Shown here one piece after another: positions 5,367-62,841 of a DNA stretch of 64,000 nt. The notes beneath the pieces are model-generated. The model saw nothing but the letters and a program-made list of their open reading frames with translations, made no database searches and was not told the origin of the DNA. The DNA is taken from IMG/VR virus record IMGVR_UViG_3300027733_000033. One strand, written 5' to 3'. This DNA comes from a virus. Every line of letters begins with the position of its first letter. The stretch's first letter is position 1. Both the position numbers and the translations under genes were made by a program.

Positions 5367-5825
5367 TTATTTATTATTGAATTTATCAGCTAAATTTTTC
5401 AATCTAAGTTCACCATCTTCTTTGCTGATTTTGCCTGTATTTACGGCATTTTTTATGCCCCAAGATTTAACTATAGCGCCGGTTGCTGAATTTTGAAATT
5501 CTTTATGTGCTTTTTCTTTAGCCAATGTTTCTTTTTCTTTTCTTTGTTCATCTGCAGTTTTTCCAAATTTATCACCTACAGTTTCAACTCCAAGTTGTTT
5601 AGCCAACGTTTCCGTCATACCTACAACCATACCATTTTTGATGGTAATTTTATTAGCATCAACTCTTGATTCCTTAGGGAATTTTGGGTGGTCAATAGAA
5701 TAATCACCCCAATCTGGGTCTTTTGTTGCTTTTAACGGCGTTACTATTTGTACATTTCCCTGTTTCAATTTAACGGGGTTGACTTGTTCATTTAAATGTC
5801 CAGTAAATTCTTTATAACTTAACAT
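5367..5825 (-). CDS. Putative internal head protein with capsid-targeting-like N-terminus
   Basis: GGAGG RBS before ATG 5825; MLSYKEFTGHLNE; TAAATA late-promoter-like site upstream. Confidence 0.65.
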   Translation of the reverse strand: MLSYKEFTGHLNEQVNPVKLKQGNVQIVTPLKATKDPDWGDYSIDHPKFPKESRVDANKITIKNGMVVGMTETLAKQLGVETVGDKFGKTADEQRKEKETLAKEKAHKEFQNSATGAIVKSWGIKNAVNTGKISKEDGELRLKNLADKFNNK

Positions 5826-5909
5826 ATATTCCTCCATAAAATATTATTTAAAACAAAAAAAGCCGCTCTACCAATTAAGATAGAGCGGCTTAACTAATCC
5901 TTAAAAGGA

Positions 5910-6839
5910 TTATCCGGCGGCGGCAATTCTAGCAAAATATGCCATTACGTCTTCATCGTCATCGTCAGACTTTGAAGCCGCAACAGGCGCTGGAGCTGAC
6001 GCAGTCATATAAGATGAAGCAGATTCAACCTTAACCGGCGCTTCAGCGTAAGAATTAGTCATAGAGTTCGCGTTAGGTACAGCTGGCGAATCAGGATTAA
6101 TAACTGAATTTAATTTTCTAGATAATTCTTCATAAGTTTTAAAGTTAGAAGGCGCTAAAAAGTCATTCAGCTGATATTGTGCATTTACAGCAGCAACAAG
6201 TTTGGCTTCGTCACCACCGAATAATTCGGATGGTTCAGCAAAAACTGATTGGTCATAATTAGGATAACCTTCAACGGTACGGATACGCAATTTAAAATTA
6301 GCGCCTTCCCATAAATCAAACACATTCACTGGTTTATCATCAGCAAAGGTTGGTTTTGCTTTATCCATAATTTTGTCAAAAATCTTTTTACCAAATTTAA
6401 AGATAAACACTCTGCCGTTATTAGCAGGATTCGCTGGATCGTCAAGAACTACGATATTTGCAAAGTATTGTAGGCGGCGTTTTCTAGCACGCGCCAACTC
6501 TTTATCCTTTTCATTACCGGTATTCCATAATGCAGAATTAGCCATAGAAACGGGATCTTCCTGACCAATAGTGGTTAATGAATTTTCAATAAACCATTTA
6601 CCGGTTGGTCCTTGAAAACCATGATTATAGATTTTCACCCAAGGTAAATCATCACCCTCTTTTTTAGGTAAAAAACGAATAACAGCTGAACCGTTGCCAG
6701 CTTTATCACGAGTCAACTTCCAGTAACGTTCATCATCACTATTGTTAGTTTGTGGATTAACGATTTTTTCCATTTCAGCGGTAATAGCGCCGAAGTCAGC
6801 ATTACGCATTTTTCTTAAAGATTCGATATTGATTGTCAT
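5910..6839 (-). CDS. 32: Single-stranded DNA-binding protein (T4 gp32)
   Basis: DERYWKLTRDKAGNGSAVIRFLP, HGFQGPTGKWFIENS, KFGKKIFDKI, acidic C-terminal tail. Confidence 0.97.
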   Translation of the reverse strand: MTINIESLRKMRNADFGAITAEMEKIVNPQTNNSDDERYWKLTRDKAGNGSAVIRFLPKKEGDDLPWVKIYNHGFQGPTGKWFIENSLTTIGQEDPVSMANSALWNTGNEKDKELARARKRRLQYFANIVVLDDPANPANNGRVFIFKFGKKIFDKIMDKAKPTFADDKPVNVFDLWEGANFKLRIRTVEGYPNYDQSVFAEPSELFGGDEAKLVAAVNAQYQLNDFLAPSNFKTYEELSRKLNSVINPDSPAVPNANSMTNSYAEAPVKVESASSYMTASAPAPVAASKSDDDDEDVMAYFARIAAAG

Positions 6840-6920
6840 ATTATTTCCTTTATTTACGATAGATTACGATGTATTTACGATTAGTCAACTGCCCTAACTT
6901 TCATATTATACGTTAATACA

Positions 6921-7502
6921 CTATGAAAGTAAACTTGATTGTCGATAAACATTTTTCAGTTTATCTAAATCATATTCAACGAATCCGGACAGTTTTTTGA
7001 TTCGAAGAAATTCTTTTTGAAACATTGGATATTCGATATCCAAAAACCCAAACATTTTATTTAATATGTTCATGGTTTCAATAGTAATAAAGCCGCCCAT
7101 AAACATTCTGAACGTTAATGGTATTTCACCATCTTTAAATTCAAACAGGTTTGTTTCACCTTTATCTAGTTCCCATTCAATTTTAGCAAGATCGTCTTTA
7201 AAGACGTTAGTCAAGCTTTGTTTACGTTTTAGAAAAAGTAGGTAATTATCAACGCACCCATCATCAATGGCATAAATAAAATTAGGATACCCATAAGCAA
7301 TATTAGCCGCCGTGAACTGGATAACTTCCATGTCAGATTTAAAGTATTTGCTAACAGCTTCAAACAATTTATAATCCTTTCTGCTCAGATATGCCGAATA
7401 GCTTGTTTTTGTTTTACCCTTATTAGCAAACACATCATAATTATTTGACGTGAAATGTAGCTTTATAGAACTGTAATATTGATAAATCTGATACCCGTTC
7501 AT
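6921..7502 (-). CDS. 59: Helicase loader (T4 gp59)
   Basis: YxxIKLHFTxxNYD...RKD motif; position between gp33 and gp32. Confidence 0.85.
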   Translation of the reverse strand: MNGYQIYQYYSSIKLHFTSNNYDVFANKGKTKTSYSAYLSRKDYKLFEAVSKYFKSDMEVIQFTAANIAYGYPNFIYAIDDGCVDNYLLFLKRKQSLTNVFKDDLAKIEWELDKGETNLFEFKDGEIPLTFRMFMGGFITIETMNILNKMFGFLDIEYPMFQKEFLRIKKLSGFVEYDLDKLKNVYRQSSLLS

Positions 7503-7741
7503 TATACGTCCAGAGTAGCAACTTTAGGCAACATACCGTTTGCGACAAATTCGTTTTCTAGTTTACCCCGAATAGAGCGATTAAGCATAGGCACAACATC
7601 TACTACATCAAGATAATGCTCTTCGCAATATTCGAGGATAATATCTAGCACAGGTTTTTTAGTTACAGCTGATTCAGTTTCAATAAAAATTGAGAATTCA
7701 TTAGATGTTTTAAACATAAGTTCTCCATTACAAAAATACAA
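7502..7741 (-). CDS. 33: Late-transcription coactivator (T4 gp33)
   Basis: FSIFIE...LDIILEYCEE...KLENE; synteny. Confidence 0.8.
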   Translation of the reverse strand: MYFCNGELMFKTSNEFSIFIETESAVTKKPVLDIILEYCEEHYLDVVDVVPMLNRSIRGKLENEFVANGMLPKVATLDV

Positions 7742-7772
7742 TTATAACTTATTTTAGTCTAAAAGTAAAGCG

Positions 7773-9303: not shown

Positions 9304-9319
9304 AATATATAATCCCTTT

Positions 9320-11257: not shown

Positions 11258-11621
11258 TTAAAAGATTTGACCTGCAGTAAAAAAATTCCCGTTAAAACTT
11301 GAATTCAAATTTTTAACAAAAGATTTTTCGTCTTTAGATTTACTGCGAGCATCATTAATTTTTTAAGTATAAAATCATTTTCAACTTGTGTGCCGCCTCC
11401 TAACTTATGAACGGCAACCTTATCTTTGTCGTCAAGCATCCAACGCATATTACTTAAAGATTCAGCAGCACCTTTAGATCTTAAATTTGCTTTACCGCCC
11501 GTGTGCGATGTGATTTGCATAGGGTTTTCATTGTGTCTTTAAAATTAGCAAAAAATGCTTCTGTTGCTTCATTCAATACAGATTCCATAACTGCGTTTTT
11601 AAACTGTTCAAATCCTGACAT
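11258..11621 (-). pseudogene. Capsid-targeted protein broken by two single-base deletions (or assembly errors)
   Basis: MSGFEQFKNAVMESVLNEA continues into MQITSHTGG... after one missing A near 11531, and into INDARSKSKDEK... after another near 11360. The repaired product is about 121 aa. Confidence 0.6.
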
Positions 11622-11632: not shown

Positions 11633-12381
11633 CTATTGTTTAATTGCTCTAACTCTGTAATTGTTACCTTTATCCGATCTATCATTTTTATCGCCGTTTC
11701 CAAAATCTAAATAACAAGAACTGAAAGCGTCGCGACCTTTATCGCTTGCCCAATATTGATGTCCCGCAAAATCATTGTCAGACAAATAAATTTGATCTAA
11801 CTCATCCATTGTGGGTAATCTCCAACCCTTTCCTAATGATTCTGCGTATTGAACTGCATCATTCCAATTTAAAGATTTTTCTGTAGAAGCTGCAGCAATT
11901 TTAAATTTAGGTTTAAGCGCTTTTTTTGCGTCTGTAACAAATTTTTCAAGTAAACCTACTTCAGTTGGGAAAGTGTACCAGTTTCAATTTTTGAAACCAA
12001 ATTTTGAATATATTTTTCTGATGGGCGCGACAAAAACGCAGATTCATTTAATTGAAATTCTGTATTTAATGCTGATTCCATAACAGACATTTTAAAGTCT
12101 CCAAATCCTAATCTTTCGTAACCTTCTTCAAGAGCTTTTTTATCTTTTGAATTCATATCCCAATAATAGTCAACTTGTTTAGAATTAAATTTTGCGTATA
12201 TTAATCTAGTTATAATAGCTTCTTTTCCACCAGCTTCTGCCATAGTTTTTGCTGTGGCTTGTACTCTGCTCATAGAGTTATTATTACGCAATAAAGTTTC
12301 AGTATCAGCCTTTTTCCAAGACTTATATGCTTTATGGATTTGTTTCAATTCTATCATATCTGGTGTAAATTCTTTAACCAT
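11633..12381 (-). pseudogene. Protein with C-terminal DUF1566/Lcl domain, frameshifted near 11966
   Basis: The -1 frame after TLS reads (P)TEVGLLEKF...LNWNDAVQYAESLGKGWRLPTMDEL...YWASD...LDFGNG...YRVRAIKQ*. The span is 749 nt, one base short of a whole number of codons. Confidence 0.75.
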
Positions 12382-12490
12382 TTTGTGTTCCTTTTTAAAA
12401 TATAATAATACTTATTTAGTTAAAATCATTATACTATAAATTCTACCAAAAGTAAAGGGGCAAACTAATAAAAGTTCACCCCTTTTTTGA

Positions 12491-12664
12491 TTATGGCTTA
12501 GTCATATGCGCAACCCTATTTCGAATTTTATTCTTATCTTTAGGTCGTTGGCTCTTATCATATAGAGCGGCAAGTTGTGTTAGATTTAATAACTTAAGAC
12601 GAGGTTTCCCGTTTTTAGTTAATAATGGATTCGCTTTTCTGCTACCTTTGCTTACTGCTGCCAT
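12491..12664 (-). CDS. Small basic protein (not in ORF track)
   Basis: MAAVSKGSRKANPLLTKNGKPRL...; AGGAG RBS. Confidence 0.65.
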   Translation of the reverse strand: MAAVSKGSRKANPLLTKNGKPRLKLLNLTQLAALYDKSQRPKDKNKIRNRVAHMTKP

Positions 12665-18012: not shown

Positions 18013-18288
18013 TTATTTAGTTTCGTTTGCGCGTCTTGCAGGGACAACATGTTTTTTGGCTTTTCCTACAGCTTTAGCTCTAGTATCTTCAATACCGCTA
18101 TGGATAACAGTTTCACCTTTGCCATATTTAAAACCATGGACTTGCCATTTATGCCCTTCTGGCGTTTTAGTTGTTCGCCAACCAACCGTATCATATTCAC
18201 CCTTTTCGCTTTCTTCAATTAATTCATATTCGATATCAGAAGAAAGGCTTTCTAATACAGTTTGTTTAAATTCTTGAAACCCTAACAT
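18013..18288 (-). CDS. Putative internal head protein (capsid-targeting-like N-terminus)
   Basis: MLGFQEFKQTVLE. Confidence 0.65.
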   Translation of the reverse strand: MLGFQEFKQTVLESLSSDIEYELIEESEKGEYDTVGWRTTKTPEGHKWQVHGFKYGKGETVIHSGIEDTRAKAVGKAKKHVVPARRANETK

Positions 18289-18737
18289 TATTTTTCCTTA
18301 TGGTTATTAATAAATTCTATTACAGCAAGTTCTTCAATGATTAGCTGTTCAGATTGTAAAACAGAGAAGAATTTATCTTCAAGTAAGGCTAAATCCATTT
18401 CTGGGTTATCGTAAGATTCTTTAACCAAAAATAGAGAGGTAGCAAGGTGTCGCATATACCAATCACCCATAGGCAGTTTAGCAATTAATTTTTTAATGTT
18501 AATCACAATTCTATAGAGGTAATTAGTAGCCGCCTTTTCTTCTGCTTTGTTCAATGTATTATAATGTTTCAGGACGTTGCCTTCGCCATCAATAATACCT
18601 AGTTTATATGCATCATATTCTGTAAAGGGTTGAATCAAAAGAGTCAAAACCTTTAGTGCCAGCAAGTTATCTACCAGCGGATTAAGCGTAATATGCTTTT
18701 TATTTATATTTACATCAGAATGTGTAATCGGTGTCAT
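18288..18737 (-). CDS. Conserved T4-like late hypothetical protein
   Basis: PFTEYDAYKLGIIDGEGNVLK motif recurrent in T4-like phages. Confidence 0.7.
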   Translation of the reverse strand: MTPITHSDVNINKKHITLNPLVDNLLALKVLTLLIQPFTEYDAYKLGIIDGEGNVLKHYNTLNKAEEKAATNYLYRIVINIKKLIAKLPMGDWYMRHLATSLFLVKESYDNPEMDLALLEDKFFSVLQSEQLIIEELAVIEFINNHKEK

Positions 18738-19084
18738 TATAATAATCCTTTAAGTTTTTCAACAGTCAGTTTATCCATATTGGATTCGTTATAATTAACT
18801 TTGCCAAGATACGCCAGAACTGTAAATACAATAGAATGATATTTTTTATCTAGTTTGAAAAGCAACAATTCCTGTGTTGCGTCACCAAATAAATTGTATA
18901 GAGTTGTTATGTTATTAACGATTAGCCGTATACAATCATCATCTTTGTATACGAATCTGAATAACAACTTTTTCAACATAACAAATAATGCCAAATCTTT
19001 TTTAAATTCATCAAAAGAATGACACTGCACATTATCGTAATGTGTTATACAAAACAACATAAAATTGTCGTTATTCAGACCCAT
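18737..19084 (-). CDS. Conserved T4-like hypothetical protein
   Basis: NFMLF...HYDN..C...EF..DL...RLIVNNI..LYNLFG. Confidence 0.7.
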   Translation of the reverse strand: MGLNNDNFMLFCITHYDNVQCHSFDEFKKDLALFVMLKKLLFRFVYKDDDCIRLIVNNITTLYNLFGDATQELLLFKLDKKYHSIVFTVLAYLGKVNYNESNMDKLTVEKLKGLL

Positions 19085-19095: not shown

Positions 19096-19677
19096 TTATG
19101 CGACAGTTAATGTAGCAGAACTTGAAGTAACAGCTACAGCATTTGTAGCAGTAATAATAACACGATATTTTTTACCGGTTAAACCAGTTGTGTTAGAAAT
19201 ATTCAATGTTGCAGTTGTTGCCGTAGTATAAACTCCACCATTAGTGATTGAAGTAAACGATTTAGAACCTGCGTTAGCAACTTGCCATTGATAACTAATA
19301 GAGCCGCCGCCTGAAGAGATAGCAGCAGTGACACCAAACGTAGTAGCCGCTGGAGCTGTGACTGAACGGTTAACCGGTGCAGTTGTTACAGATAATACAT
19401 AAGTATCAGCAACTTCGATATTGGTATCGCCAATACGATCACCGGCGGCAACTGCTGTTGCTTTCATTGGGACTAATTGTTCAGCATAATGACGAAGAGT
19501 GCCAGATGAATCTTTACGACTTTCGTATAACCACCATCCTGGTCCGGTAATACCCTTTGCTTTAGTATCTGCGTCAGCTGCTTCAGTATCATCTACAAAA
19601 ATAGCTTTTTTACGATCTTCTTCTGACAAATAAGCTGGAACGCCAGCTTCAGTATCTTCTTTTTTCCATAAACTCAT
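19096..19677 (-). CDS. Virion structural protein with Ig-like domain
   Basis: GITGPGWW N-terminal domain; C-terminal SYQWQ...TATLNI...YRVII...SSSATLTV. Confidence 0.8.
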   Translation of the reverse strand: MSLWKKEDTEAGVPAYLSEEDRKKAIFVDDTEAADADTKAKGITGPGWWLYESRKDSSGTLRHYAEQLVPMKATAVAAGDRIGDTNIEVADTYVLSVTTAPVNRSVTAPAATTFGVTAAISSGGGSISYQWQVANAGSKSFTSITNGGVYTTATTATLNISNTTGLTGKKYRVIITATNAVAVTSSSATLTVA

Positions 19678-19689: not shown

Positions 19690-20589
19690 TTATTGTGGGC
19701 GATGCTTAAATCTAGAGATAGCAATTTGTTTCACTTTGCTAGTTAATTTTGCCGCCATTTTGGCTAGCAGAGGTCCTTTCTTGGCAATGATTCTTTCCAT
19801 TCTTTGCTTTTCAGGTAAAGTCAATTCCGCATCAGACTTACCATTAGAAAGTTTTCTTTTTAACAAACCGACCGCAGTTCTACGTGCGCGGTCTTCAATT
19901 CTTTGAGGAGAAGGCATAGTGTGTAAAGCCAATTTCATGCCGCGTTGACGTTTAACCGCGCTTCTAGCAAATACCTGTCTGCGTTTAATTCTATCTGCTA
20001 CGGTTAACCCTTTCCAAGCTTCATCAACAGTAGACAATTCTCCCTCTAATGGGTCTTGTTTTGATTTTTTAAGTTTACCCGCAGATTCGCCTGCTTCGTC
20101 ATCATCGTCATCAACAACATCAGCAACAGAATCGCCTGTATCACTCACAACATGCAATTCGTCTGAATCTACAGCACCTAAGTCAACTAGATCTTCAAGA
20201 TCGTTAACATCGCCTAGCATATTATCGATTTCTTCATCAGACATATGTTCCATGCCATCTTCAATATCCATATTCACGTCTGCGAATTTACCGGTTTCAT
20301 CGCCTTGTTTTCCTGCCGCTTTGCGGTCATTGTCTACCGGCTTAGTTATATCAGAAGATGTAGACATAGAAACAGAACCGTGTTCCATTAATTTTTTTCT
20401 AAAATCTTTAAAATTCATAACACTCTCAGATGTCGTTGGCATAAGAATATTCATAGCCGATTGTTTTAATTCTGCCGGCACATTAGCCGTTTTTAACTTC
20501 TTTAATATCTTAGCATTAGCGTCTTTATCTTTAAGGTCAACACCAAAGATATCTGCTAAAATTTTGATTACATCTTTATTCTGTTTCAT
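19690..20589 (-). CDS. Hypothetical virion/head-associated protein
   Basis: Acidic middle and very basic C-terminus; internal MNFKDFRKKLME motif. Confidence 0.65.
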   Translation of the reverse strand: MKQNKDVIKILADIFGVDLKDKDANAKILKKLKTANVPAELKQSAMNILMPTTSESVMNFKDFRKKLMEHGSVSMSTSSDITKPVDNDRKAAGKQGDETGKFADVNMDIEDGMEHMSDEEIDNMLGDVNDLEDLVDLGAVDSDELHVVSDTGDSVADVVDDDDDEAGESAGKLKKSKQDPLEGELSTVDEAWKGLTVADRIKRRQVFARSAVKRQRGMKLALHTMPSPQRIEDRARRTAVGLLKRKLSNGKSDAELTLPEKQRMERIIAKKGPLLAKMAAKLTSKVKQIAISRFKHRPQ

Positions 20590-21199
20590 TAAGCACCTTA
20601 AAGTCTTTATAAGATAATATTGATTCAGTCAAGCCTTTAACGCCTAACCCCTTTTGCGCTAACTTCCAAACGATTTTAGCTTCAGCATCAGTACAAGGAT
20701 CTGGTAAAGATTTTCTAAAAGAATCAAAATCGCCCTCAGTAACATATTTGCGCATAGCTGTGCCCGACATACTAGCAGCATCGCTTTCATCTGCATCTGG
20801 ATCGCGTTGAAGCGCCATTACCTTTACACTTTTGAATTTGAAATAATCTCGGCTTTCAGCAAAAGCCGGCAAAGATTTACTGTATTCAGGATATCTATCC
20901 GAACCACATACAATAATTATATTCTCATAATTATGTTCATTTGCATAATGTAATAAGTTACCTATGATTTTGACTTTAGTATCTGGGTCAAGTTTGACCG
21001 TACCACGAGTCCATTTGTTCATCAGTTTAGCTTTTACATCATATGGAAGTGGGTTCTTTTTATTTTCTGTATGAGATAAAAATACAGCTGGGTCTGCATC
21101 ATGTTGTTTGGCAATTCTTTCAATTTCAGTAACCAACGCCATATGACCTTTATGAAAAATGTTTGCTCTGCCGAACGCGCATACTAATGTCTTTTTCAT
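20576..21199 (-). CDS. HIGH-family nucleotidyltransferase (cytidylyltransferase/NMNAT-like)
   Basis: FGRxNxxHKGH, KKNPL, VCGSDR, MSGTAMR. Confidence 0.85.
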   Translation of the reverse strand: MKKTLVCAFGRANIFHKGHMALVTEIERIAKQHDADPAVFLSHTENKKNPLPYDVKAKLMNKWTRGTVKLDPDTKVKIIGNLLHYANEHNYENIIIVCGSDRYPEYSKSLPAFAESRDYFKFKSVKVMALQRDPDADESDAASMSGTAMRKYVTEGDFDSFRKSLPDPCTDAEAKIVWKLAQKGLGVKGLTESILSYKDFKVLNETE

Positions 21200-22101
21200 A
21201 ATTTAGCTCTGTTTTTAAATTCAGTTGTAGTAATTTTAACTAATTTATCAGATATCTTCATAACGATACCCTCTAAATTTTTACCAATCATATCTTTGCC
21301 TTGTATGTTTTGGTGAGATATAATGTACTCAGCCAACTCATCTTTAAGTTTTTGAAGCATAGCCTTTACCGCTAACTTTTCTTCTTTGTCTGCGGCTTTT
21401 CTGCTGTTGATAATTTCAATCGTTCTGTCTGTGATTGAATCAAGAGGACTAATAAATCCAGAAATATCAATCTCTTTCATTTTTAATGTTGGATCAAGAA
21501 CCTTAATTGAATCGCTTGAAGTAGCATAAAGCGCCTTGAGTATTTCTGCTTCATCAGGATGAGTTTCACCGGTTGATGATACTAAAACTTTCAAAGGAAA
21601 TAATGTCATTAAAGAACCCAGTTTAGATTTGTCATATTTGACAGACACAAACTGAATCCAATCGTTTTCTTGTTTACCCAATGGATTATATAGCGTTTCT
21701 ACGACAACCTTTGAATCGGTAGGTAAAACGGCGGCAAATTTACTTGATTTAAAATGCTCAAGAACGTCATCATAATGTGCCGAGCGTTCAAGCACAATAG
21801 GATCGGTAACGCCTTTAGATTTATTGAATGAAGTGAACGCGCCTGAATCAAAAATTGGACCAGAACGTGAAGACTCAACGTATATTTTACCGGCGTCATT
21901 TTTACCTACTCTGAAACCAAATCCATCCACTTTAAGCGCTACCGGTATGTTCTTAAGTTTACCTTTGAGTTCAGATTTAACTGAACGCATAAAATTGATA
22001 AACTCAACATCCTTCATTCCTTGAAGATGTATAATAGATTCGCGACTGGTAGCAACAACTGCTTCGTCTAATTTTGCTCTAAGTTGACTAAATGTTATCA
22101 T
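21196..22101 (-). CDS. Ligase-fold (KxDG) nucleotidyltransferase with capsid-targeting-like N-terminus
   Basis: MITFSQLRAKLDEA; LKVDG motif I; EGIV and VKI motifs IV/V. Confidence 0.6.
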   Translation of the reverse strand: MITFSQLRAKLDEAVVATSRESIIHLQGMKDVEFINFMRSVKSELKGKLKNIPVALKVDGFGFRVGKNDAGKIYVESSRSGPIFDSGAFTSFNKSKGVTDPIVLERSAHYDDVLEHFKSSKFAAVLPTDSKVVVETLYNPLGKQENDWIQFVSVKYDKSKLGSLMTLFPLKVLVSSTGETHPDEAEILKALYATSSDSIKVLDPTLKMKEIDISGFISPLDSITDRTIEIINSRKAADKEEKLAVKAMLQKLKDELAEYIISHQNIQGKDMIGKNLEGIVMKISDKLVKITTTEFKNRAKL

Positions 22102-22102
22102 A

Positions 22103-23248
22103 TCACACCTTGTAATTTTTATAGTAATCAGCAATCATCTGTTTGTATTTGTCCAGATTGATATTAGCTTGTTGAGAGAAATAATAAACTCCAGGGAACT
22201 TCTCATCATAATCGCCTAAAGGATTTCCTTTAACGATTCCTTGAGCGCCTTTGCCAAACAATCTTTCAACATAATCGTCAAAAATTTCAGCAATTTGTGC
22301 ATGTGATTTATATTGTTTAACCAGTTTCACTAAGCCTATAAACGATTTCATACTTTCGATATCGGCTTTAGTAGCCTTTTTTTCAAAATAGATATCAAAA
22401 ATTGTTTCAAGTTCGGTATGGATTACAGAATCTTTAGCATCAATTTCATCATACACAGGTTTACCGTTTTGCATAACGATATTCCCAGCATCATCTAAAT
22501 GCGGAACGTAACGGAGTCTCAAGCCTTTTTGAACAGAGAATGCTAACTTAGTCTTATCAGTTTCTTTAGGCTTTCTGGTTTTACCTGTAAGAATAATGAT
22601 TGGCTCTTTTTTATCTGCGGCTAAACTTTGCATCAAGAATTTATGATGTAAGCCTTTAATTCCTTCAACGATATCTGTCCAAGATGATGAATGAGAGAAA
22701 TTACTCCATTCTGTTGGTTTACCGTTTTTAAAGTCAACCAATTCAAAATCAATCTGAATATTAATATCAAACTGTTTAGAGTACCATAATGAAATAAATT
22801 GACCAGCAGAATTTTTATGACCGATTAAGGTAAGGTCGCCGTATGTTTGATTGACAGATTTGAGTAACCAATCTTCAATCATAGGCGTTAATAGAACGTC
22901 TGCTTGAGTATCAATATCACCGACAGATTTCTTTTTAGAAGAAAACAGGTTTGAATCGATATGTTTTAAATCGAAAAAGTGAAACGCTGAACCAGATAAA
23001 AATTCTTTTGATTTGAGTAACTTTGCGTCCCATAAAGGTAAGCCGTTCATTTTAGTGAATGCCGCAGACATTTTATGAAGTGCGTCATCAAGGACAGGCA
23101 CAATGTCGTCACGTTTTATTTTTGAGAGGTCGATACGTTCTGCGGAAATGTCACCAATAGATACATTTCCGCCACATAATAATAATTGTGGTTGCCCATA
23201 ACCACCATTTAAATTATCAACTTTTAAATATTCGTGTAATAAACTCAT
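22103..23248 (-). CDS. Pol-beta-fold nucleotidyltransferase-like protein
   Basis: SGS...GDID and QIDF acidic motifs; KGxxH. Confidence 0.6.
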   Translation of the reverse strand: MSLLHEYLKVDNLNGGYGQPQLLLCGGNVSIGDISAERIDLSKIKRDDIVPVLDDALHKMSAAFTKMNGLPLWDAKLLKSKEFLSGSAFHFFDLKHIDSNLFSSKKKSVGDIDTQADVLLTPMIEDWLLKSVNQTYGDLTLIGHKNSAGQFISLWYSKQFDINIQIDFELVDFKNGKPTEWSNFSHSSSWTDIVEGIKGLHHKFLMQSLAADKKEPIIILTGKTRKPKETDKTKLAFSVQKGLRLRYVPHLDDAGNIVMQNGKPVYDEIDAKDSVIHTELETIFDIYFEKKATKADIESMKSFIGLVKLVKQYKSHAQIAEIFDDYVERLFGKGAQGIVKGNPLGDYDEKFPGVYYFSQQANINLDKYKQMIADYYKNYKV

Positions 23249-23286: not shown

Positions 23287-23360
23287 GCCACTCGCGGAAC
23301 GTCAATTCCCAGTAGCGCTAATCATTCTAAAGATAATTTAAGGAAATTACTATGACCAGT
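23287..23360 (+). promoter_or_regulatory. Conserved two-hairpin leader RNA (copy 1 of 4)
   Basis: GCCACT-CGC-GGAA-cgtcaa-TTCC-C-AGTAGC, then CT-AA-TCAT...ATGA-CC-AG. Confidence 0.75.
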
Positions 23361-24044
23361 ACAAATATATGCGTAACAGAAAAACTTTTTGCGATAAGTG
23401 AAAATAAATTATACATGGATAGATACATAAAATTTATTAATCATTATGAGTCTATGCAATACACAATAAGTGGATATTTTGAATATCATCACATATTACC
23501 TAAATCATTATTTCCAGAATTCAAAATATCAAATTTTAATTTAATTAAACTTCCATACAGAGCACATTTTATTGCACATTATTTGTTGGCTAAAGCAACA
23601 AATAATTACAAAATGATTTCAGCATTTAACGGCATGTGCAATCAGAATAAACAAAAACATCAACGGTCATTATCTGTGCTATATGCTGCGGCTAAAAAGA
23701 TGTTTTCAGAAAGTCAACGCGGTTCTTCCAATATAGGTTATGGGATGGTATCTGCGTGGAATAAACAACTTAATGCACGAGTGCGTGTAACAAAAGAACA
23801 ATTTTATTCAAATAAAGAAATTTATGGTGGTGTAACTTGTAAAGAAGCTTTACAATGGAAAACTATACACGAAAATTATATACAGAAACCTCAATCAGAA
23901 TACCAAAGAATGCGTGCATCTGAAACAAGTTTAAACACAGCTTCAGCAAAATTAGTGTCAACCGGAGAATCTTTAGGTCGAATTTCTAAAAATGATATTA
24001 GATGGTCAACTGGAGAAATTGTAAGTGCCAATAAAAAATGTTAA
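23352..24044 (+). CDS. Free-standing HNH homing endonuclease
   Basis: EYHHILPKSLF...NLIKL..RAHFIAHYLL; antisense to the flanking operon. Confidence 0.85.
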   Translation: MTSTNICVTEKLFAISENKLYMDRYIKFINHYESMQYTISGYFEYHHILPKSLFPEFKISNFNLIKLPYRAHFIAHYLLAKATNNYKMISAFNGMCNQNKQKHQRSLSVLYAAAKKMFSESQRGSSNIGYGMVSAWNKQLNARVRVTKEQFYSNKEIYGGVTCKEALQWKTIHENYIQKPQSEYQRMRASETSLNTASAKLVSTGESLGRISKNDIRWSTGEIVSANKKC

Positions 24045-25417: not shown

Positions 25418-25505
25418 AAAATCTCCTATTTTGATACTATTATTTAGTGAATTTCAGGCGTAAAAAAGCCGGCTTAATAGCCGGCAGACTTCGGAGAGTA
25501 ATGAA

Positions 25506-42333: not shown

Positions 42334-43022
42334 ACAAGTATTTATACTCCCATCACACCCACCTATCTGTACATCAAACAACACTCCATCACAAAAAAGA
42401 AATACTTCGGTAAGACCACTAGAGACCCATACACATACAACGGCTCAGGGGTTTATTGGACCAATCACATCAAGAAACACAGCAAAGAACACATCGTAAC
42501 TTTATGGGTTTCTGAGTTGTATTATGACACGTCAATTGTAGAAGTAGCCTTAAAGTTTTCTTCAGATAACGACATAGTCAAATCTAAAGAATGGGCAAAT
42601 ACGGAACCAGAAAACGGGTTAAATGGATGCCCTCCTGGCACAAAACGTTCAGAAGAAGCTAAGATTAATATGCGTAAGCCTAGATCAGAAGAAGCTAAGG
42701 TTAATATGCGTAAATCAGAAGAAACTAAAGCCAAAATGCGTAGACCTCGTTCAGAAAAAGCTAAGGCTAATATGAAAGGCAGAGCTCCAAATAAAGGTAA
42801 ATCCACATCACAAGAAACTAAAGACAAAATGTCTGCTAATATGACAGGCAAAAAACGTGGTCCATATAAAAAATCAAGTAAACCTAGAAACCCACGCTCA
42901 GATAAAGGTAAACCTAGAAAACAAGTCACATGTCCACATTGCGGTAAACTGGAGGTGAAAATGGAATGAAAAGATGGCATTTTGATAAATGTAAAGCAGA
43001 AACATCAGTCTCTTTATTTTAA
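42325..43022 (+). CDS. GIY-YIG homing endonuclease with NUMOD3-like repeats; frameshift in the C-terminal zinc finger
   Basis: YLYIK...KKYFGKT...YNGSG; SEEAK repeats. One added A near 42948 restores CPHCGKTGGENGMKRWHFDKCK (the track stops at 42969). Confidence 0.85.
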
Positions 43023-44655: not shown

Positions 44656-45492
44656 ATGATTAACTTTAAACAGTTTAGAGAACAGCTCGACGAAACAATG
44701 CTAGTTGAATCTTCACAAAAAGAACAATTTATCTATAACTCTCATGGTAGCCATGCCTTATTAAAAAGAAAATCTATAAATTTTTCATTAAAAGAAAATG
44801 TTGTTAATCCAAGTTTTGAAAAACATTTTCTAGGGCATAAAACTGATAAGTCATACAGTGAAAATCACAGAGATGAAATATCGAAAAGTAGGGAAATCGT
44901 AGGGAAATTAATAAAAAATAATCCTATATCAAAAGATGCTAGAGAATACATAAGCTCTTATATGCTGAATGATTCTTCAGGACTGACAAAAAGATTATTG
45001 GATACACATAAGCATGTTATGAAACATAATAATCTGGATAATTTTAGAAAAGATAAAAAGCCAGATAAAAAAGATAAAATTATCCAAGGATTGGATAATT
45101 ATGCATTCTCTCCAGCATCTGAAGATTTTGATTCTTATTCTGGCGTAAAATTTGATATTAGTAAAGTAAAGCCGGCTGGAAAAAGTAAAAATGGAAATCC
45201 TATTTATCATCAACCAACATTTATGTCTTCATCTACAAGTAAACATATAGCAAATGAATTTACTGATGATGAATCACCAATTAGACATATATTCCATTGG
45301 AAAAATAAAAAAGGCGATTCTATTTCAGCAGTAGCAGGCGTTCATCATGATGAGCACGAAATTTTATTAAATAGAGGAAATAAAAATACTTATATTGAAC
45401 ATTTAGGTCATAAGGATTATACTGATAAAAATGGAAAAATTGTTAGGGTTCATGAAGTAAGAAAAGTTTCAGATTTAGAAATTAACAACTAA
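44656..45492 (+). CDS. ADP-ribosyltransferase (Alt/VIP2-like) with capsid-targeting-like N-terminus
   Basis: SYSG (usual YRG position), FMSSSTS, DEHEILL (ExE); MINFKQFREQLDE. Confidence 0.75.
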   Translation: MINFKQFREQLDETMLVESSQKEQFIYNSHGSHALLKRKSINFSLKENVVNPSFEKHFLGHKTDKSYSENHRDEISKSREIVGKLIKNNPISKDAREYISSYMLNDSSGLTKRLLDTHKHVMKHNNLDNFRKDKKPDKKDKIIQGLDNYAFSPASEDFDSYSGVKFDISKVKPAGKSKNGNPIYHQPTFMSSSTSKHIANEFTDDESPIRHIFHWKNKKGDSISAVAGVHHDEHEILLNRGNKNTYIEHLGHKDYTDKNGKIVRVHEVRKVSDLEINN

Positions 45493-45514: not shown

Positions 45515-46975
45515 ATGATTAACTTTAAACAGTTTAGAGAACAGCTCGACGAAGCCAGAAAAAACCCTGAGATGAACCCTAGAATCTCAGCATACGAAGC
45601 ATTGTTACCGTATAAAGATGACGATAACGCATTTATACATTTTACCAATTTGAACAAACTTGGTATTAACCCTTTATCTGGATTTGAAACCCCAGTCGGT
45701 GTTTACGCTTACCCGCTAAAACAAGTTTGGAATCTTTATAAAGTAGATAAAGCAAAATCTTTATCTGTGTTACCATTTGGTTCTGATAGAGCCTATATTC
45801 AATTATTCAAATGGAACGGCAAAGGCAAATTAGTCAGCGATTTAAAAAAGGATTATACAAGCACAGATTATGATTCTGATATGCGTAAGTTGAGAACAAT
45901 CTATAAGGATATTCAGTCTAAAACTGATACATCAAAAGCATGGAATGCTTTAGTTAAAGGCATTTTTAAACACAAATTAGAAATTCCAGATGATTTTGAA
46001 GAAGGCAATGTCGTCAATATAACTCACCTTTTGGATACTGTGTTTGGTTCAGATAAAGTTCGTCGCGGCATAACAATCAAAGATAGTCCTAGAACAAAGC
46101 CTATTTTTGATGATATACTGAAAGCCGGTAAAGTGTATATGAAAGATAAAAAATCTGATTCAAATTGGGATAAGTTTAGTAAGAAATTTGAACTTTACCA
46201 TATTGAACCACCTCCCCGTATGGCAATTCTTTTTGTGAGTGCAGATGAACTTGAATATGAAATTGAAGATGCTATAAGAAACTCAGACAAATATCGTACA
46301 TGGGAAATTAACGTAAACAAGCCGGCTATTTATAGGGAACTAAAACCGCTTCAAGACGCATACAATAATTCTCTATTTAATGTTGATGATATAATTAATG
46401 CCGCTACAGAAAAAACTCGCAACCCATCACCAGCAACTTGTTTCTGGAATGTAACCCGTTGGTTGTCTAATTATGGGATAGATCCTAATGTCAGAAGATT
46501 TACCAGTGATGTTATGTTTGCTAAAGACGGGCATCATAGACAAATTCAAGCGCCTACGTTAGATACAGCAGAAATTAAAGCCGGCTCTAGACAATGGGGA
46601 AATCTGTTACGAAAACTAGGTTACGCGGGATTTGTTGATAGAAGAGCAGATGGCATTATACACCCTGCTGAACCTTGTCAGGCTGTATTTACCGGTATGG
46701 ATTACATTGAGTTGATTGACACTGTGCTTAATAAGGATTATGCCAAACTTAAACACGATGATGAAGTAACATTAGAAAATTTAAAAAATGCTTCTCATAA
46801 AGACTTGATGGATTATATTATGAATTGGAACGCTAATGCTATTGACAAAATTGATATGAAATATTTGAAATGGATAAATGATTCAACAGATTTAGCCAAA
46901 ATGGTTGTTGGTATGATGATTAAAGGTTCTACAACGACAAAAATAACCCAAGAAATTGATTATATCAAAAGCTGA
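45515..46975 (+). CDS. Capsid-targeted protein, possibly a divergent split ART-like domain
   Basis: Same first 13 aa as 44656; IHF...TPVGVYAY...LGYAGFVD...IIHPAEPCQAVF. Confidence 0.5.
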   Translation: MINFKQFREQLDEARKNPEMNPRISAYEALLPYKDDDNAFIHFTNLNKLGINPLSGFETPVGVYAYPLKQVWNLYKVDKAKSLSVLPFGSDRAYIQLFKWNGKGKLVSDLKKDYTSTDYDSDMRKLRTIYKDIQSKTDTSKAWNALVKGIFKHKLEIPDDFEEGNVVNITHLLDTVFGSDKVRRGITIKDSPRTKPIFDDILKAGKVYMKDKKSDSNWDKFSKKFELYHIEPPPRMAILFVSADELEYEIEDAIRNSDKYRTWEINVNKPAIYRELKPLQDAYNNSLFNVDDIINAATEKTRNPSPATCFWNVTRWLSNYGIDPNVRRFTSDVMFAKDGHHRQIQAPTLDTAEIKAGSRQWGNLLRKLGYAGFVDRRADGIIHPAEPCQAVFTGMDYIELIDTVLNKDYAKLKHDDEVTLENLKNASHKDLMDYIMNWNANAIDKIDMKYLKWINDSTDLAKMVVGMMIKGSTTTKITQEIDYIKS

Positions 46976-47078: not shown

Positions 47079-47148
47079 AAGATTCGCGATATTACCAGTA
47101 TCCAATCTTTCTAATACTTTGATTTTAATGGAGGAAGTACCAGCTATG
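47079..47148 (+). promoter_or_regulatory. Conserved two-hairpin leader RNA (copy 3, most divergent)
   Basis: AAGATT-CGC-GATA-ttaccag-TATC-C-AATCTT; CT-AA-TACTT...AAGTA-CC-AG; ACTAAATA upstream. Confidence 0.72.
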
Positions 47149-48618
47149 AATATTTATACGATTTTAAGTTCAATGAAACATAATAAACTTCAATTAAACA
47201 GATATTTAAAGTTTATTGATTGGTGTTCAAAAACAAATATTAACGGCGTTGAATTTGCACATTTGCACCATATATGTCCTAAATCTATGTTTCCTATGTA
47301 TTCAAATTTAACTACAAATAAATGGAATGGAATAAAGTTAACACATAGACAACATTACATTGCTCATTTAATGTTAACTAAAGTTTACCCAAAATCTATA
47401 AAAATGACAAGGGCATTTATATGTATGAACGCTAGTAGTCCACAATTCATAAAAATACATTCAAAATGTTATGCTAGTAATGTAGCAAAATTAAATGGGA
47501 AAGTTATAGCAAAAAATAAAATCACCGGAAAATATGAACACATCACATCTGAAGAATACGCTAAAGGTAATCATACGCATAATAGCGTAGGTATGGTAAC
47601 TGCAATTGATGCTGCTGGAAATATTATAAAGGTGACATCAGAAAAATTCAATTCTACAGAAAATTTAAAGGGTGTAAAAGCCAATACCGTTTCTGTTATA
47701 TTTAAAGATAACAGCACTGGGCATGTAACAAAAGAACAATTTGATTCTAATGATGAATTAGTTGGTGTGTTAAATGGAAAAGTATATGCAAAAAATAATG
47801 AATCAGGAAATTATGAATGGATAACTCCAGAAATATATTCTAAAGGCGATTATACACATTTTAATAAAGGTTTGATCACTGGTAAAAATAAAATCACCGG
47901 TGATGTCGAAAGAATAACTTCTGAAGAATACGCTAAAGGCAATCATACGCATAATAGCGTAGGTATGGTAGCTATATCATTAAATGATGGAACATACGCT
48001 AAAGTTACAAAGGAAGAATTTAATAAAGGCGGCTATAAAGGAGTAAATAGTGGTTATGTTATAGCAAAAAATAAAATCACCGGTGAATCTAAAAGGATAA
48101 CTTCTGAAGAATATTTTTTGAATTGTGACTATACCACACACCATTCAGGAACAGTTATAGCAAAAAATAAAATCACCGGTGATGTCGAAAGAATAACTTC
48201 TGAAGAATACGCTAAAGGCAATCATACACACAGCACAACAGGAACAGTTACAGCAAAAAATAAAATCACCGGTGATGTCGAAAGAATAACTTCTGAAGAA
48301 TACGCTAAAGGCAATCATACACATGATAATAAAAATATGGTCACTGTAGTATTAAATGATGGAACATACGCTAAAGTTACAAAGGAAGAATTTAATAAAG
48401 GCGGCTATAAAGGAGTAAATAGTGGAAAATGTTCTGTTCGTTCTATACACAAAATAGGCTCATATAGAATACCCTGTGGGACACTAAAAGATTACGAAGT
48501 GACCGTATATAAAAAAATTGTTTATGTTCATAATAGTTCAACTAATGAAGAAAAAATTTTATCTAAAAATGAATTCGTTGATGAAAAATGGAAACTGGGA
48601 AAACTAGAAAAAAATTAA
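47146..48618 (+). CDS. HNH endonuclease with about 10 tandem repeats of about 31 aa
   Basis: HLHHICPKSMF...LTHRQHYIAHLML; repeats such as GxVxAKNKITGDVERITSEEYAKGNHTH. Confidence 0.85.
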   Translation: MNIYTILSSMKHNKLQLNRYLKFIDWCSKTNINGVEFAHLHHICPKSMFPMYSNLTTNKWNGIKLTHRQHYIAHLMLTKVYPKSIKMTRAFICMNASSPQFIKIHSKCYASNVAKLNGKVIAKNKITGKYEHITSEEYAKGNHTHNSVGMVTAIDAAGNIIKVTSEKFNSTENLKGVKANTVSVIFKDNSTGHVTKEQFDSNDELVGVLNGKVYAKNNESGNYEWITPEIYSKGDYTHFNKGLITGKNKITGDVERITSEEYAKGNHTHNSVGMVAISLNDGTYAKVTKEEFNKGGYKGVNSGYVIAKNKITGESKRITSEEYFLNCDYTTHHSGTVIAKNKITGDVERITSEEYAKGNHTHSTTGTVTAKNKITGDVERITSEEYAKGNHTHDNKNMVTVVLNDGTYAKVTKEEFNKGGYKGVNSGKCSVRSIHKIGSYRIPCGTLKDYEVTVYKKIVYVHNSSTNEEKILSKNEFVDEKWKLGKLEKN

Positions 48619-54068: not shown

Positions 54069-54145
54069 GCCACTCGCGATGTTACCAGCATCCAGTAGCA
54101 CTAATCATTCCAATGACAATTTAAGGTAAAACTATCATGACCAGC
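54069..54145 (+). promoter_or_regulatory. Conserved two-hairpin leader RNA (copy 4)
   Basis: GCCACT-CGC-GATG-ttaccag-CATC-C-AGTAGC; CT-AA-TCAT...ATGA-CC-AG; CTAAATA upstream. Confidence 0.78.
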
Positions 54146-54802
54146 ACAACTATATATACTCCTATCACACCCACCTATCTGTACATCAAACAGCATTCCA
54201 TAACCAAAAAGAAATATTTTGGTAAGACCACTCGAGATCCATACAAATACAATGGTTCTGGTAAGCACTGGTCTAGACACATCAATAAACATGGTAAAGA
54301 ACACATCGTTACTCTTTGGGTTTCTGACTTGTATCACGACACATCAATTGTCGAGGTTGCCTTAAAATTTTCTGCTGATAACGATATCGTCAAATCTAAA
54401 GAATGGGCGAACCAAAAACCAGAAAATGGATTAGATGGCGGAAGTGTGAAACATACAGAAGAAACTAAACTCAAAATGTCTGTTGCACATGAAGGTAAAA
54501 AACACACAGAAAAAACTAAAGCTAAAATGCGTAAGCCTAGATCAGATGAAACCAAAGCCAAAATATCTGCTACTCTAACAGGCAAAAAACGTGGGCCTCA
54601 ATCAGAAGAAACTAAAGACAAAATATCTGCAGCTAACAAAGGTAAACCTAGAAAACCTCAATTAGAAGAATCTAATGCTAAACGATCTGCTACTATGACG
54701 GGTGTCTCTAAACCAGAATTTTTTTCAATAATTGAAAATAGAAAGACTTATGGTAAATCACATCTTTCTAGATATTATCCTGAATTTAAGCAGTACTATT
54801 AG
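54137..54802 (+). CDS. GIY-YIG homing endonuclease with NUMOD3 repeats (paralog of 42325)
   Basis: N-terminal ~100 aa nearly identical to the 42325 protein; HTEETKLKMS repeats. Confidence 0.88.
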   Translation: MTSTTIYTPITPTYLYIKQHSITKKKYFGKTTRDPYKYNGSGKHWSRHINKHGKEHIVTLWVSDLYHDTSIVEVALKFSADNDIVKSKEWANQKPENGLDGGSVKHTEETKLKMSVAHEGKKHTEKTKAKMRKPRSDETKAKISATLTGKKRGPQSEETKDKISAANKGKPRKPQLEESNAKRSATMTGVSKPEFFSIIENRKTYGKSHLSRYYPEFKQYY

Positions 54803-59070: not shown

Positions 59071-59072
59071 GG

Positions 59073-61054: not shown

Positions 61055-61175
61055 ATTTTTAACCCGCTTACCCTCAATTCACGCCCGACTAGGCTATTAT
61101 ACGCTTCTAGGAGTAAAAAGTAAAGTTTTATTTTCACGCATAAAAAACCCAGCGGATTAGGCTGGGTCGTAAAAT

Positions 61176-61421
61176 CTATTTCCATTCTAGCATCGCTTTA
61201 GTGTAGTTCAATTGTCTGTTATACCAAAACTCAACAGACCCACCAAACCGCGCTACGATATTGTCGGAGATAAAAGTGATAGGGTATATCCCATCAATAA
61301 TGTTGGTAAGGTAATCGTCAGAAATATTAAGCGCTTCAGCTAACTGTATTCTGTTCATATTATTTTCGTCAGCAAGGTCTAATAGGGTATCGACTGGCTT
61401 TGACGGTTGGAAATTGCTCAT
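61176..61421 (-). CDS. HigA-like HTH protein
   Basis: MNRIQLAEALNIS...IIDG..PIT...FGGSVEFWYNRQ. Confidence 0.7.
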   Translation of the reverse strand: MSNFQPSKPVDTLLDLADENNMNRIQLAEALNISDDYLTNIIDGIYPITFISDNIVARFGGSVEFWYNRQLNYTKAMLEWK

Positions 61422-61549
61422 TTTACTCTCCGGTTTATCATTAAGGTTTAACTTCATTAAGATCTATTATACTCCCTTTTTTCCAAAAGTAAAGCTTTTT
61501 TATGCGTGAAAAAGCCGGCTTCGCGCCGGCTTGGTATCAAAAACGAGTA

Positions 61550-62467
61550 TTATTTTGATGCTTTCCATTTGGATAATACTTGATCCAAATGTTTCAATTC
61601 ATCTGTTATAGCTTTAATTTCAGACTCAAGATTAATTTTATTTGTTTTAAAAGCCTTTTCCCAATTAGGATCTTCTCTTCCTATAGAGATAATATCACGA
61701 CTTCCAATTTTACGAATATTCAAAATGATAGCATTAGGAAGTTGTTTTAGACGTGATTCTAAATTTTCTTTTTCTTGTTCAGTTGCTTTAATTCTAGCAT
61801 TTAACCCATCAAGAGATACTTCTAAATTCTTAAAGTTTACGCCGGCGCAAGATTGAGTTTGGTATCCAGTTCCTGGTCTAGTGAACCCATGATGGGACAT
61901 CAATCCAGTTTTATCAATAGAAATATCACGTAAACACCAACCACAAGTTCCTCTAACTTGATTAGGATTAACCGGCTTTGGTGTCAATGATGGAGCTCTG
62001 CCTTTAACTGTATTTGTTTTCAGATGGTCCATTATATCTTTTAATGGAGCATACTCAGACGCAATCGCTATCGCATTTCCTATCAGTTTAGATTTATCGG
62101 CTAACTTAGAATATTTTTTAACGATACCGTCCATATTTCTAAATCCTTTATCTTTATAATAAAGGTCTTCCTCTTCTTTAGCGTATGGAGCCGCATCTCT
62201 TTCTTCACGAGATTGATTCAGGTAAAGGTTTGTATAATGTTTTTCCCAAGACGATTCACAAGAATTGTTGAAAACTGATTTTAAAGTATCTAAATCAGCT
62301 TTACGAATACTGCCTTCTTCCATAGCAGTTTTAAGAATTAACAAGGCATCATCAAATTTATCTTTATTTTTTGGACTCAAAGCGCCTAACGTTAGATTAA
62401 AATTAGAAAGAATTTGTTTAGAAGTGATTTGAACAGATTCTGCTCTAAATTCACGAAATGTTTTCAT
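61550..62467 (-). CDS. Putative internal head protein with Zn-binding motif
   Basis: MKTFREFRAE (close to T4 MKTYQEFIAE); GTCGWC...HHGF..PG...C. Confidence 0.7.
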   Translation of the reverse strand: MKTFREFRAESVQITSKQILSNFNLTLGALSPKNKDKFDDALLILKTAMEEGSIRKADLDTLKSVFNNSCESSWEKHYTNLYLNQSREERDAAPYAKEEEDLYYKDKGFRNMDGIVKKYSKLADKSKLIGNAIAIASEYAPLKDIMDHLKTNTVKGRAPSLTPKPVNPNQVRGTCGWCLRDISIDKTGLMSHHGFTRPGTGYQTQSCAGVNFKNLEVSLDGLNARIKATEQEKENLESRLKQLPNAIILNIRKIGSRDIISIGREDPNWEKAFKTNKINLESEIKAITDELKHLDQVLSKWKASK

Positions 62468-62471
62468 TTGA

Positions 62472-62684
62472 TTATCCTTTGAATAGTATAACGTTGAAGT
62501 CCGTTCCGACATAACCGGTTAACTTCTCTTTTGGTGATAATTTTAGATAATAGTCCCACCGGTTTAAGTGAGGATTATACGCCGCGCTATCGAAATACAA
62601 CACGATAGGATATTTAACATCTTTTCCACAATAGATTACTTTATCGCCCTTTTTAAAACTATTTGACTGCGATTGAAGTTTCAT
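62472..62684 (-). CDS. Hypothetical protein
   Basis: FKKGDKV motif; start position uncertain. Confidence 0.45.
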   Translation of the reverse strand: MKLQSQSNSFKKGDKVIYCGKDVKYPIVLYFDSAAYNPHLNRWDYYLKLSPKEKLTGYVGTDFNVILFKG

Positions 62685-62841
62685 CATCATTAATCCGTTT
62701 CTCAATTTCTGTCTTAGTGGTCTTTTTACGTTTAGCGCCTACTGGGAGTTCTGTGTTAGCAACGCCGGCGGTTGTATTAGTGGCAACACCAGCCGCTACA
62801 ACATCTTCTAAAACTGCTTTTCTAAATTCAGCAAAACTCAT
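62659..62841 (-). CDS. Small capsid-targeted peptide
   Basis: MSFAEFRKAVLE; TATAAATA on the minus strand at about 62864-62871. Confidence 0.65.
   Translation of the reverse strand: MSFAEFRKAVLEDVVAAGVATNTTAGVANTELPVGAKRKKTTKTEIEKRINDDETSIAVK

Follow-up and report, generated by a model that had tools for sequence, protein, structure and literature searches.

We analysed a 64-kb stretch of DNA (64,000 nucleotides, hereafter the window) from the IMG/VR virus record IMGVR_UViG_3300027733_000033, in which a set of genes begins with one short peptide resembling the capsid-targeting sequence (CTS) of the internal proteins (IPs) of phage T4. The window, with a G+C content of 34%, comes from the genome of a T4-like phage. 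It codes for the single-stranded DNA-binding protein gp32, the late sigma factor gp55, the large terminase gp17 and a gp41-type helicase; UvsX, gp46/47, NrdAB, primase and DNA ligase were assigned from N-terminal sequences only. A megablast search against cultured phages gave no match to the window, and its large terminase (TerL) is only ~47% identical to the nearest ones from cultured phages, which belong to cyanophages and to Caulobacter phage Cr30; no cultured phage is a close relative. The host phage is an uncultured, deep-branching freshwater T4-like lineage. Near-identical DNA is present in lake-water metagenomes from 2017–2025, and no RNA run containing the stretch was found among public runs.

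The leader peptide and its likeness to the T4 signal

Ten open reading frames (ORFs) of the window open with M-x-x-(F/Y)-x-(E/Q/D)-(F/L)-(K/R/T)-x-x-(L/V)-x-E or with a 10-residue version of it (Table 1). A preliminary description of this DNA, made by a model from the letters and their translations, had named ten such N-terminal peptides, and all ten were found, at start codons 5825, 11621, 18288, 22101, 25417, 37789, 44656, 45515, 62467 and 62841, by which we refer to the genes below. Each start follows an AGGA/GGAG-type ribosome-binding site (RBS) at a distance of 6–10 nt, and an in-frame stop lies 3–17 codons before it. The leader takes two forms: a 10-residue form like that of T4 and a 13-residue form, in which an extra helical turn precedes the cleavage site, position 8 is K/R and (L/V)-x-E is shifted three residues on. 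Glu ends all ten leaders, with a P3 residue that is Leu in five, Val in four and Arg in one (62467, whose leader terminates in R-A-E, not L/V-x-E).

Over six frames the pattern matches 10–11 times, against a mean of 0.05–0.2 and a maximum of 1–2 in 100 second-order Markov simulations and an expectation of 0.1 in residue-shuffled proteins; chance and base composition are ruled out as its cause by these counts. The preliminary description had held that the motif should not be equally common among non-virion early proteins; the recognisable replication, recombination and nucleotide-metabolism proteins of the window lack it. Nor can a DNA-level repeat be the sole cause. Apart from one identical pair (44656/45515), the leaders share just 49–79% of their nucleotides pairwise, and it is therefore the peptide, not a DNA element, that is conserved.

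In T4 (NC_000866), the ipII and ipIII leaders read MKTYQEFIAE/A (a slash marks the cleavage site), and the ipI leader is of the MKTFKEF...ITE type (MKTFKEFTSTTTPVSTITE/A). The first 10 residues of IPIII are enough for packaging; mutagenesis identified residues 4 and 7 as the main determinants of targeting, and residue 8 and the Glu as those of processing, and gp21 cleaves after L/I-x-E (PMC9026906). The same CTS is described in PMC8442874, where any protein fused to it stays in the T4 head, and T4 retains and injects whatever is so fused (PMC8442874, PMC9026906). In the family of 22101, 62 leaders are of the T4 type, and these have Phe at position 4 (62/62), F/Y at 7 (59/62), L/I/V at 8 (62/62) and Glu at 10 (62/62), the other columns being variable. 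The earlier claim of a T4-CTS-like peptide is borne out by this pattern: the conserved columns are those of the residues used in T4 for targeting (4 and 7) and for processing (P3 and Glu).

By analogy, the window tag is very likely this lineage's version of the T4 CTS, and very likely serves as a capsid-targeting leader that a protease removes. The leader, a short amphipathic N-terminal segment with an aromatic residue at 4, F/L/Y at 7 and a hydrophobic-x-Glu end, would dock its protein onto the scaffolding core during prohead assembly. A gp21-type prohead protease would then remove it after the Glu, and the mature, mostly basic cargo would stay among the DNA and enter the cell at infection. 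We put the probability of this whole reading, a T4-type CTS that is docked by its leader and cleaved by gp21 and whose cargo is retained and injected, at about 0.7. It would amount to a portable tag used on at least ten unrelated genes within 64 kb, the carriers of which are probably packaged and injected as a large, ready-made protein kit.

A wholly different function of the peptide, as a membrane- or partner-binding amphipathic helix or as a translation-initiation preference, with a likeness to T4 that is convergent or due to chance, seems very improbable. The motif is short, and such strings do arise in other contexts: a pattern scan of IMG/VR, in which 27 of the 112 matches listed were N-terminal, was of no use for counting because it was dominated by an abundant, unrelated internal motif, MKPFGEFKEVVxE. 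Against this stand an enrichment of at least 50-fold at true N-termini, the occurrence of the motif in T4-like genomes that have the cognate protease, its termination in the cleavage motif of that protease, and its absence from replication and nucleotide-metabolism proteins.

Table 1. Tagged genes and other features of the window (aa, amino acids; a slash marks a predicted cleavage site)
Position	Strand	Leader or tag	Protein or feature	Remark
2–1552	+		516-aa Ala/Gly/Lys-rich ORF with AVLE/S-type sites	Open at 5' end; no PHROG match
5367–5825	-	MLSYKEFTGHLNE/Q	139-aa basic body	No known family
11481–11621	-	MSGFEQFKNAVME/SVLNE/A	46-aa ORF
11956–12381	-	Internal, ALE/EGYERLGFGDFKMSVME/SALNTE (~12076–12111)	141-aa protein
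18013–18288	-	MLGFQEFKQTVLE/S	78-aa body	Last gene of the tightly packed 23248–18013 operon
19096–19677	-		193-aa protein, weakly like Hoc-like decoration proteins	phrog_613 'head protein' (5e-35); midway along the tagged-gene operon
19690–20589	-	Internal, MNFKDFRKKLME/H	299-aa protein: conserved 57-aa N-domain, tag, acidic stretch, basic tail
20576–21199	-	C-terminal, GLTE/SILSYKDFKVLNE/TE-stop (20588–20626)	Cytidylyltransferase-like enzyme (HxGH)
21196–22101	-	MITFSQLRAKLDE/A	RNA-ligase-like nucleotidyltransferase (predicted)	KxDG, EG and K motifs
22103–23248	-	MSLLHEYLKVDN (decayed, no Glu)	381-aa protein
23352–24044	+		Homing-endonuclease-like, HNH	PHROG
24077–25417	-	MLTFKDFRSGLDSLLE/A	430-aa body	phrog_1462
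37460–37789	-	MSAFQEFRESVLE/EALNE/A	+1 frameshifted gene
42274–42969	+		Homing-endonuclease-like, GIY-YIG-like	N-terminal sequence only
43062–44648	+		Large terminase (gp17)	TTAAATA 37 nt upstream; heads late unit
44656–45492	+	MINFKQFREQLDE/T	265-aa basic orphan body
45515–46975	+	As in 44656	Unrelated 473-aa body
47119–48618	+		Homing-endonuclease-like, HNH	PHROG
54137–54802	+		Homing-endonuclease-like, GIY-YIG-like	N-terminal sequence only
61550–62467	-	MKTFREFRAE/S (10-residue T4 type)	295-aa Cys/His-containing body	phrog_28271
62659–62841	-	MSFAEFRKAVLE/D	48-aa body

Two of the tagged ORFs are not intact. The ORF of 11621 may be truncated, to judge from an open frame that goes on beside it in another phase (11305–11520). 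At 37789, the 42-aa ORF is a +1 frameshifted reading of a gene of ~109 aa, in which the A-run at 37726 is one A too long. The gene is intact in the relatives L001 and L003, where it encodes 109 aa and opens with the same leader, and the extra A is confined to this assembly and to run X1, its probable source; three other lake metagenomes are without it. The four homing-endonuclease-like genes lie on the strand opposite to most genes, and three of the four adjoin clusters of tagged genes.

Tagged proteins and internal tag copies

Behind their leaders, the cargo bodies are as unrelated as had been claimed, the best E value between any two being 0.06. They share a basic character: the isoelectric point (pI) is at least 8 in all eight intact bodies, with a median of 8.9 versus 5.9 for other ORFs (p = 0.017), and bodies of the T4 IPs have pI values of 7.9–9.7 (NC_000866).

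Enzymes had also been expected among the cargoes, and two candidates were recognised, 22101 by an RNA-ligase-like fold and 21199 by the Pfam family PF01467. In ORF 21196–22101, K57, D59, E277, G278 and K289 do not vary among 56 sequences, at least 90% of which also have G60; K57 and D59 correspond to motif I (KxDG) with the catalytic Lys, E277-G278 to motif IV (EG) and K289 to the Lys of motif V. No Pfam or PDB sequence match was found. The AlphaFold2 (AF2) model has a predicted local distance difference test (pLDDT) score of 95.2, and Foldseek returned 31 matches in the PDB at E <= 0.001, those listed being mostly RNA ligases and otherwise DNA ligases. The top match is T4 Rnl2 (2hvr; E 2.4e-5, probability 1.0), at a template-modeling (TM) score of only ~0.4. 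The fold of the model and the motifs make 22101 a predicted RNA-ligase-like nucleotidyltransferase of the ATP-dependent RNA/DNA ligase superfamily. The cited T4 literature describes no packaged RNA ligase.

The neighbouring ORF, 20576–21199, matches PF01467 with 24.3 bits (cut-off 21) and phrog_3041 'cytidyltransferase' (1e-39), and has FHKGH, an HxGH motif, at residues 15–19. The two genes are separate and abut through an ATGA overlap. The RNA-ligase-like and cytidylyltransferase-like proteins are fused in several relatives (P0036, P0050, P0055, P0065, P0069 and P0076), which points to a joint function of the two.

For the other cargoes the evidence is thinner. Protein 44656 has an Atlas feature score of 0.95 and TM scores of 0.52–0.65 to ADPrib_exo_Tox clusters, and contains SSSTS and EHE strings with no clear Arg to complete the R / S-T-S / E-x-E triad. 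It had no homologue besides itself among 5.8 billion proteins, and no match in Pfam, in the PDB or, by tblastn, in phages; its AF2 model, made without an alignment, has a pLDDT of 38. Its likeness to ADP-ribosyltransferases (ARTs) is an unconfirmed lead from the Atlas only. Protein 45515 has a weak Atlas lead to ART-PolyVal (0.89–0.90) with no other support, and 25417 has no PDB sequence match. The remaining cargoes matched no known family in Pfam and PHROG profile searches. The body of 62467 contains CGWC...HH...C, a possible zinc site.

The preliminary description had also listed three copies of the tag away from the N terminus, in 12381, 20589 and 21199, and all three are real. The copy in 12381 reads LGFGDFKMSVME/S after an A-L-E site. 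That in 20589 occupies residues 58–69 (20383–20418); no good RBS precedes it and the upstream 57 residues are conserved as coding sequence, so the copy is truly internal. The P3 residue of the internal copies is Leu in 20589 (at 20418) and Val in 12381 (at 12105). The C-terminal tag of 21199, which has a protease-type site on either side, reads SILSYREFRVINE in L024, all the changes being conservative, and the fused relatives carry a copy after the same domain (...ILSFKAWLNEE..., ...SILSFKEWLYE..., ...FLSFRNWLNFLE-stop). Additional (L/I)-x-E sites flank the internal and C-terminal tags, and in T4, Alt is likewise processed at its C terminus (PMC9026906). Most likely, two modules have such a tag in common and are cut apart by the protease in the head. 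In L072, a 1034-aa ORF (3443, - strand) contains nucleotidyltransferase-like and cytidylyltransferase-like (FGRFNPPTIGH) regions, Cys-rich modules and an internal MKNFTEYLAEVSE motif, and looks like a polyprotein. A further copy, decayed and the fourteenth, is MSLLHEYLKVDN at the start of ORF 22103–23248, whose homologue in the relative L058/G008 has an intact leader, MLNFKQFLQVLTE.

These flanking sites suggest multiple cuts, and with the acidic, low-complexity, scaffold-like middle of 19690–20589 they could also fit carriers that are assembly or scaffold accessories in the prohead core, or that are degraded and expelled like T4 gp22, gp67 and gp68, and are never injected; most T4 core proteins are in fact cut to fragments that leave the head (PMC9026906). 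We regard this as unlikely. Folded enzyme domains, namely the RNA-ligase-like domain with its pLDDT of 95 and the cytidylyltransferase-like one, and basic bodies are not scaffold-like, and fusions to the CTS are retained and injected in T4 (PMC8442874, PMC9026906).

Modularity, promoters and head genes

Across homologues the tag behaves as a separable module that is either kept or absent. Homologues of 25417 (~50% identity, L005–L012) begin MA(S/T)I(V/T)G, precisely where cleavage of the window protein (...SLLE/ATIVG) is predicted. Orthologues of 62467 in T4-like relatives have the leaders MKTFYEFLTE/S, MLQFKEFITE/S and MIKFKEFIAE/S; homologues in phiCbK-type siphoviruses align from residue 20 on and have no leader. 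This family (phrog_28271/11549) also occurs in phiCbK-like, Brevundimonas and Serratia phages. The 106 clusters of the 22101 family, at 31–92% identity, comprise 62 with a T4-type 10-residue leader, two with a 13-residue leader, 27 with a degenerate one, 10 that start at the body and five that could not be placed. The gene of 18288 has an orthologue in L024, and that of 62841 one in L013/L014 with the leader MSFAEFKKAVLE; for 45515, the relative L004 has a degenerate leader, MRICEIIQLDE/K. In distant T4-like contigs the tag occupies corresponding places, beside terL, beside gp47/gp55 and beside homologues of 18288–19084, and it heads an adenylate-kinase-like protein in L072 and a cytidylyltransferase-like and a HAD-like protein in G007.

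The pair 44656/45515 is a special case. An RBS-plus-leader segment of ~52 bp is identical between the two genes (44640–44672/45500–45531), the identity ends at the Glu codon, and Logan contigs break at both copies. The gene of 44656 is uncovered in runs X2 and X5, of which X2 covers both flanks, and looks like a strain-variable cassette.

Several of the tagged genes had been said to have late promoters of their own. This holds for 5825, 25417 and 62841 only. A scan for enrichment of tags at late promoters, run within the window, placed a late-type HTAAATA 26–30 nt upstream of 3/10 tagged genes versus 4/97 others (Fisher p = 0.017). At 5825 a terminator hairpin is followed by TTAAATA 26 nt upstream of the ATG, and at 25417 one is followed by CTAAATA 30 nt upstream; since a hairpin and then a late motif precede each gene, the two are insulated late units among early genes. 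The G+C-rich hairpin stands directly before the late-type (C/T)TAAATA at 5826–5895 and at 25418–25487 (- strand). The gene of 62841 has a canonical TATAAATA upstream, with an ATAAATA that starts 30 nt before the ATG. Upstream of 12381 (12382–12500, - strand) lie a terminator, a sigma-70-like promoter (TTTACT-N17-TATAAT) and CTAAATA, and the regulatory cassettes before 5825, 25417 and 12381 are similar to the promoter-terminator shuffling elements found in T4-like phages. The genes of 44656 and 45515 have no late promoter of their own and directly follow the terminase gene. The 23248–18013 operon, which includes the phrog_613 gene, has a near-consensus late promoter, TATAAATT, upstream.

These observations bear on the idea that RBS and leader form a recombination or regulatory cassette for gene swapping, such that only some carriers or none are packaged and the leader is otherwise a scar. 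The identical ~52-bp segment at which assemblies break, the absence of 44656 from other strains, the decayed leaders of 23248, of L004 and of 27 members of the 22101 family, and the terminator-promoter cassettes that flank several carriers, as do the PeSL shuffling elements of T4-like phages (PMC4122927), would all be expected of such a cassette. But the leaders, one pair excepted, differ at 21–51% of their nucleotides and keep the same four or five residues, which are those that function in T4 mutagenesis (PMC9026906), and the leader is retained in orthologues down to 31–52% identity. As a replacement for packaging this idea is improbable; because a cassette role and packaging can coexist, it is better taken as an addition to the capsid-targeting reading than as an alternative.

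The capsid-targeting reading also depends on a protease and a core. In T4-related phages gp21 and gp22 belong to the core genes (PMC9026906), and the window phage would, from this core status, have a gp21 protease. Three of five leader-bearing related records encode Peptidase_S77 (gp21) and gp23 along with scaffold-like genes. The search for Peptidase_S77 in G001–G006 was negative, and hence uninformative, these being six short related fragments. In G007 and G008 the protease begins MKL(I/L)xE, a scaffold-like protein has ~24 (L/I/V)-x-E sites, and the capsid propeptide ends in ISE/A or LNE/T, ~23 residues before VRRAxPNLIAYDIAGVQPM. Because the protease, scaffold and capsid propeptides of relatives carry such sites, the (I/L)-x-E rule appears to hold in the clade.

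Several points weigh against packaging and injection. First, genes for a gp21-type protease and a scaffold were not found within the 64-kb window. Second, P3 Val or Arg departs from the L/I rule of T4. Third, the cargoes, at up to 486 aa, far exceed the T4 IPs, though they are smaller than Alt. Fourth, for internal and C-terminal tags there is no tested precedent of a targeting role. Finally, half of the ten tagged genes lack a recognisable late promoter, and sigma-70-like promoters precede the orthologues of 62467 and the tagged HAD-like gene in G007. T4 ipI, ipII and ipIII themselves lie among early genes and have early-type GTTTAC...TATAxT sites upstream (NC_000866); since they share both features, an early-gene location and sigma-70-like promoters are weak evidence against packaging.

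Protein delivery and comparison with known systems

If the tag is a delivery signal, the kit would include an RNA-ligase-like protein, a cytidylyltransferase-like protein and possibly an ADP-ribosyltransferase, along with kinase- and phosphatase-like proteins in relatives. Once injected, it could mend RNA that host anticodon nucleases have cleaved, or rebuild depleted nucleotide cofactors. We offer only tentatively the further idea that this lineage has turned the T4 tag into a general enzyme-delivery system, with a pre-loaded head in which polyproteins are cut apart and a kit that acts before phage expression.

To our knowledge, little is known of phage-injected proteins beyond those of the T-even coliphages. 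The tag would single out candidate injected proteins across a whole clade of abundant uncultured lake phages and offer a simple handle for mining metagenomes for counter-defence candidates. T4-based protein-delivery vectors use the CTS. The rules for the tag become wider, since it may have 13 residues, Val at P3 and an internal or C-terminal position, and this bears on such vectors as well as on the reading of phage genomes.

The closest known system is the T4 IPs. In both, an N-terminal MKT(Y/F)xEF-type leader ending in hydrophobic-x-Glu precedes cargo bodies that are unrelated and basic, and the genes are scattered in variable regions among early genes. Both phages also use more than one leader length, T4 having leaders of 10 and 19 residues and the window phage leaders of 10 and 13. 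The two differ in number of carriers, at least ten in 64 kb versus three in the whole of T4. Some window cargoes have enzyme folds, and the largest measures 486 aa. The 13-residue leader with K/R at position 8, the frequent Val at P3, and the internal and C-terminal copies likewise set the window phage apart from T4.

A second comparison is with T4 Alt, a packaged and injected ADP-ribosyltransferase that gp21 processes at both ends (PMC9026906). Like the proposed window cargoes, Alt travels in the head as a large enzyme and is trimmed after a Glu. The cut at its C terminus offers a precedent for the tag at the end of 20576–21199, and its activity has a possible, unconfirmed counterpart in the ART-like lead of 44656. 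Alt has its own 7-residue propeptide, whereas the window cargoes have a leader like the CTS of the IPs.

In the T-even phages at large, at least 10 types of Ip are known, identified through their N-terminal signal (Repoila et al. 1994, cited in PMC12373910), and several Ip proteins inhibit the GmrSD type IV restriction system (PMC12373910). As in the window phage, one conserved tag is joined to hypervariable, strain-specific cargoes, and by this analogy a counter-defence role of the tagged cargoes is likely. The Ip proteins of Tequatrovirus are small inhibitors, whereas the window set includes nucleotidyltransferase-type enzymes. In the giant phages phiKZ and SPN3US, head proteins are cleaved after Glu by a gp21-related protease; the ejection and inner-body proteins are many and, as proposed for the window cargoes, are cut at short x-x-E sites in propeptides with redundant sites (PMC5694885, PMC9026906). 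That lineage differs from the window phage, and no common CTS-like leader is described there. The tag itself was already known from the T-even Ip proteins. New are the number of carriers, the presence of enzymes among the cargoes, the 13-residue leader, the tags away from the N terminus and the lineage in which they occur.

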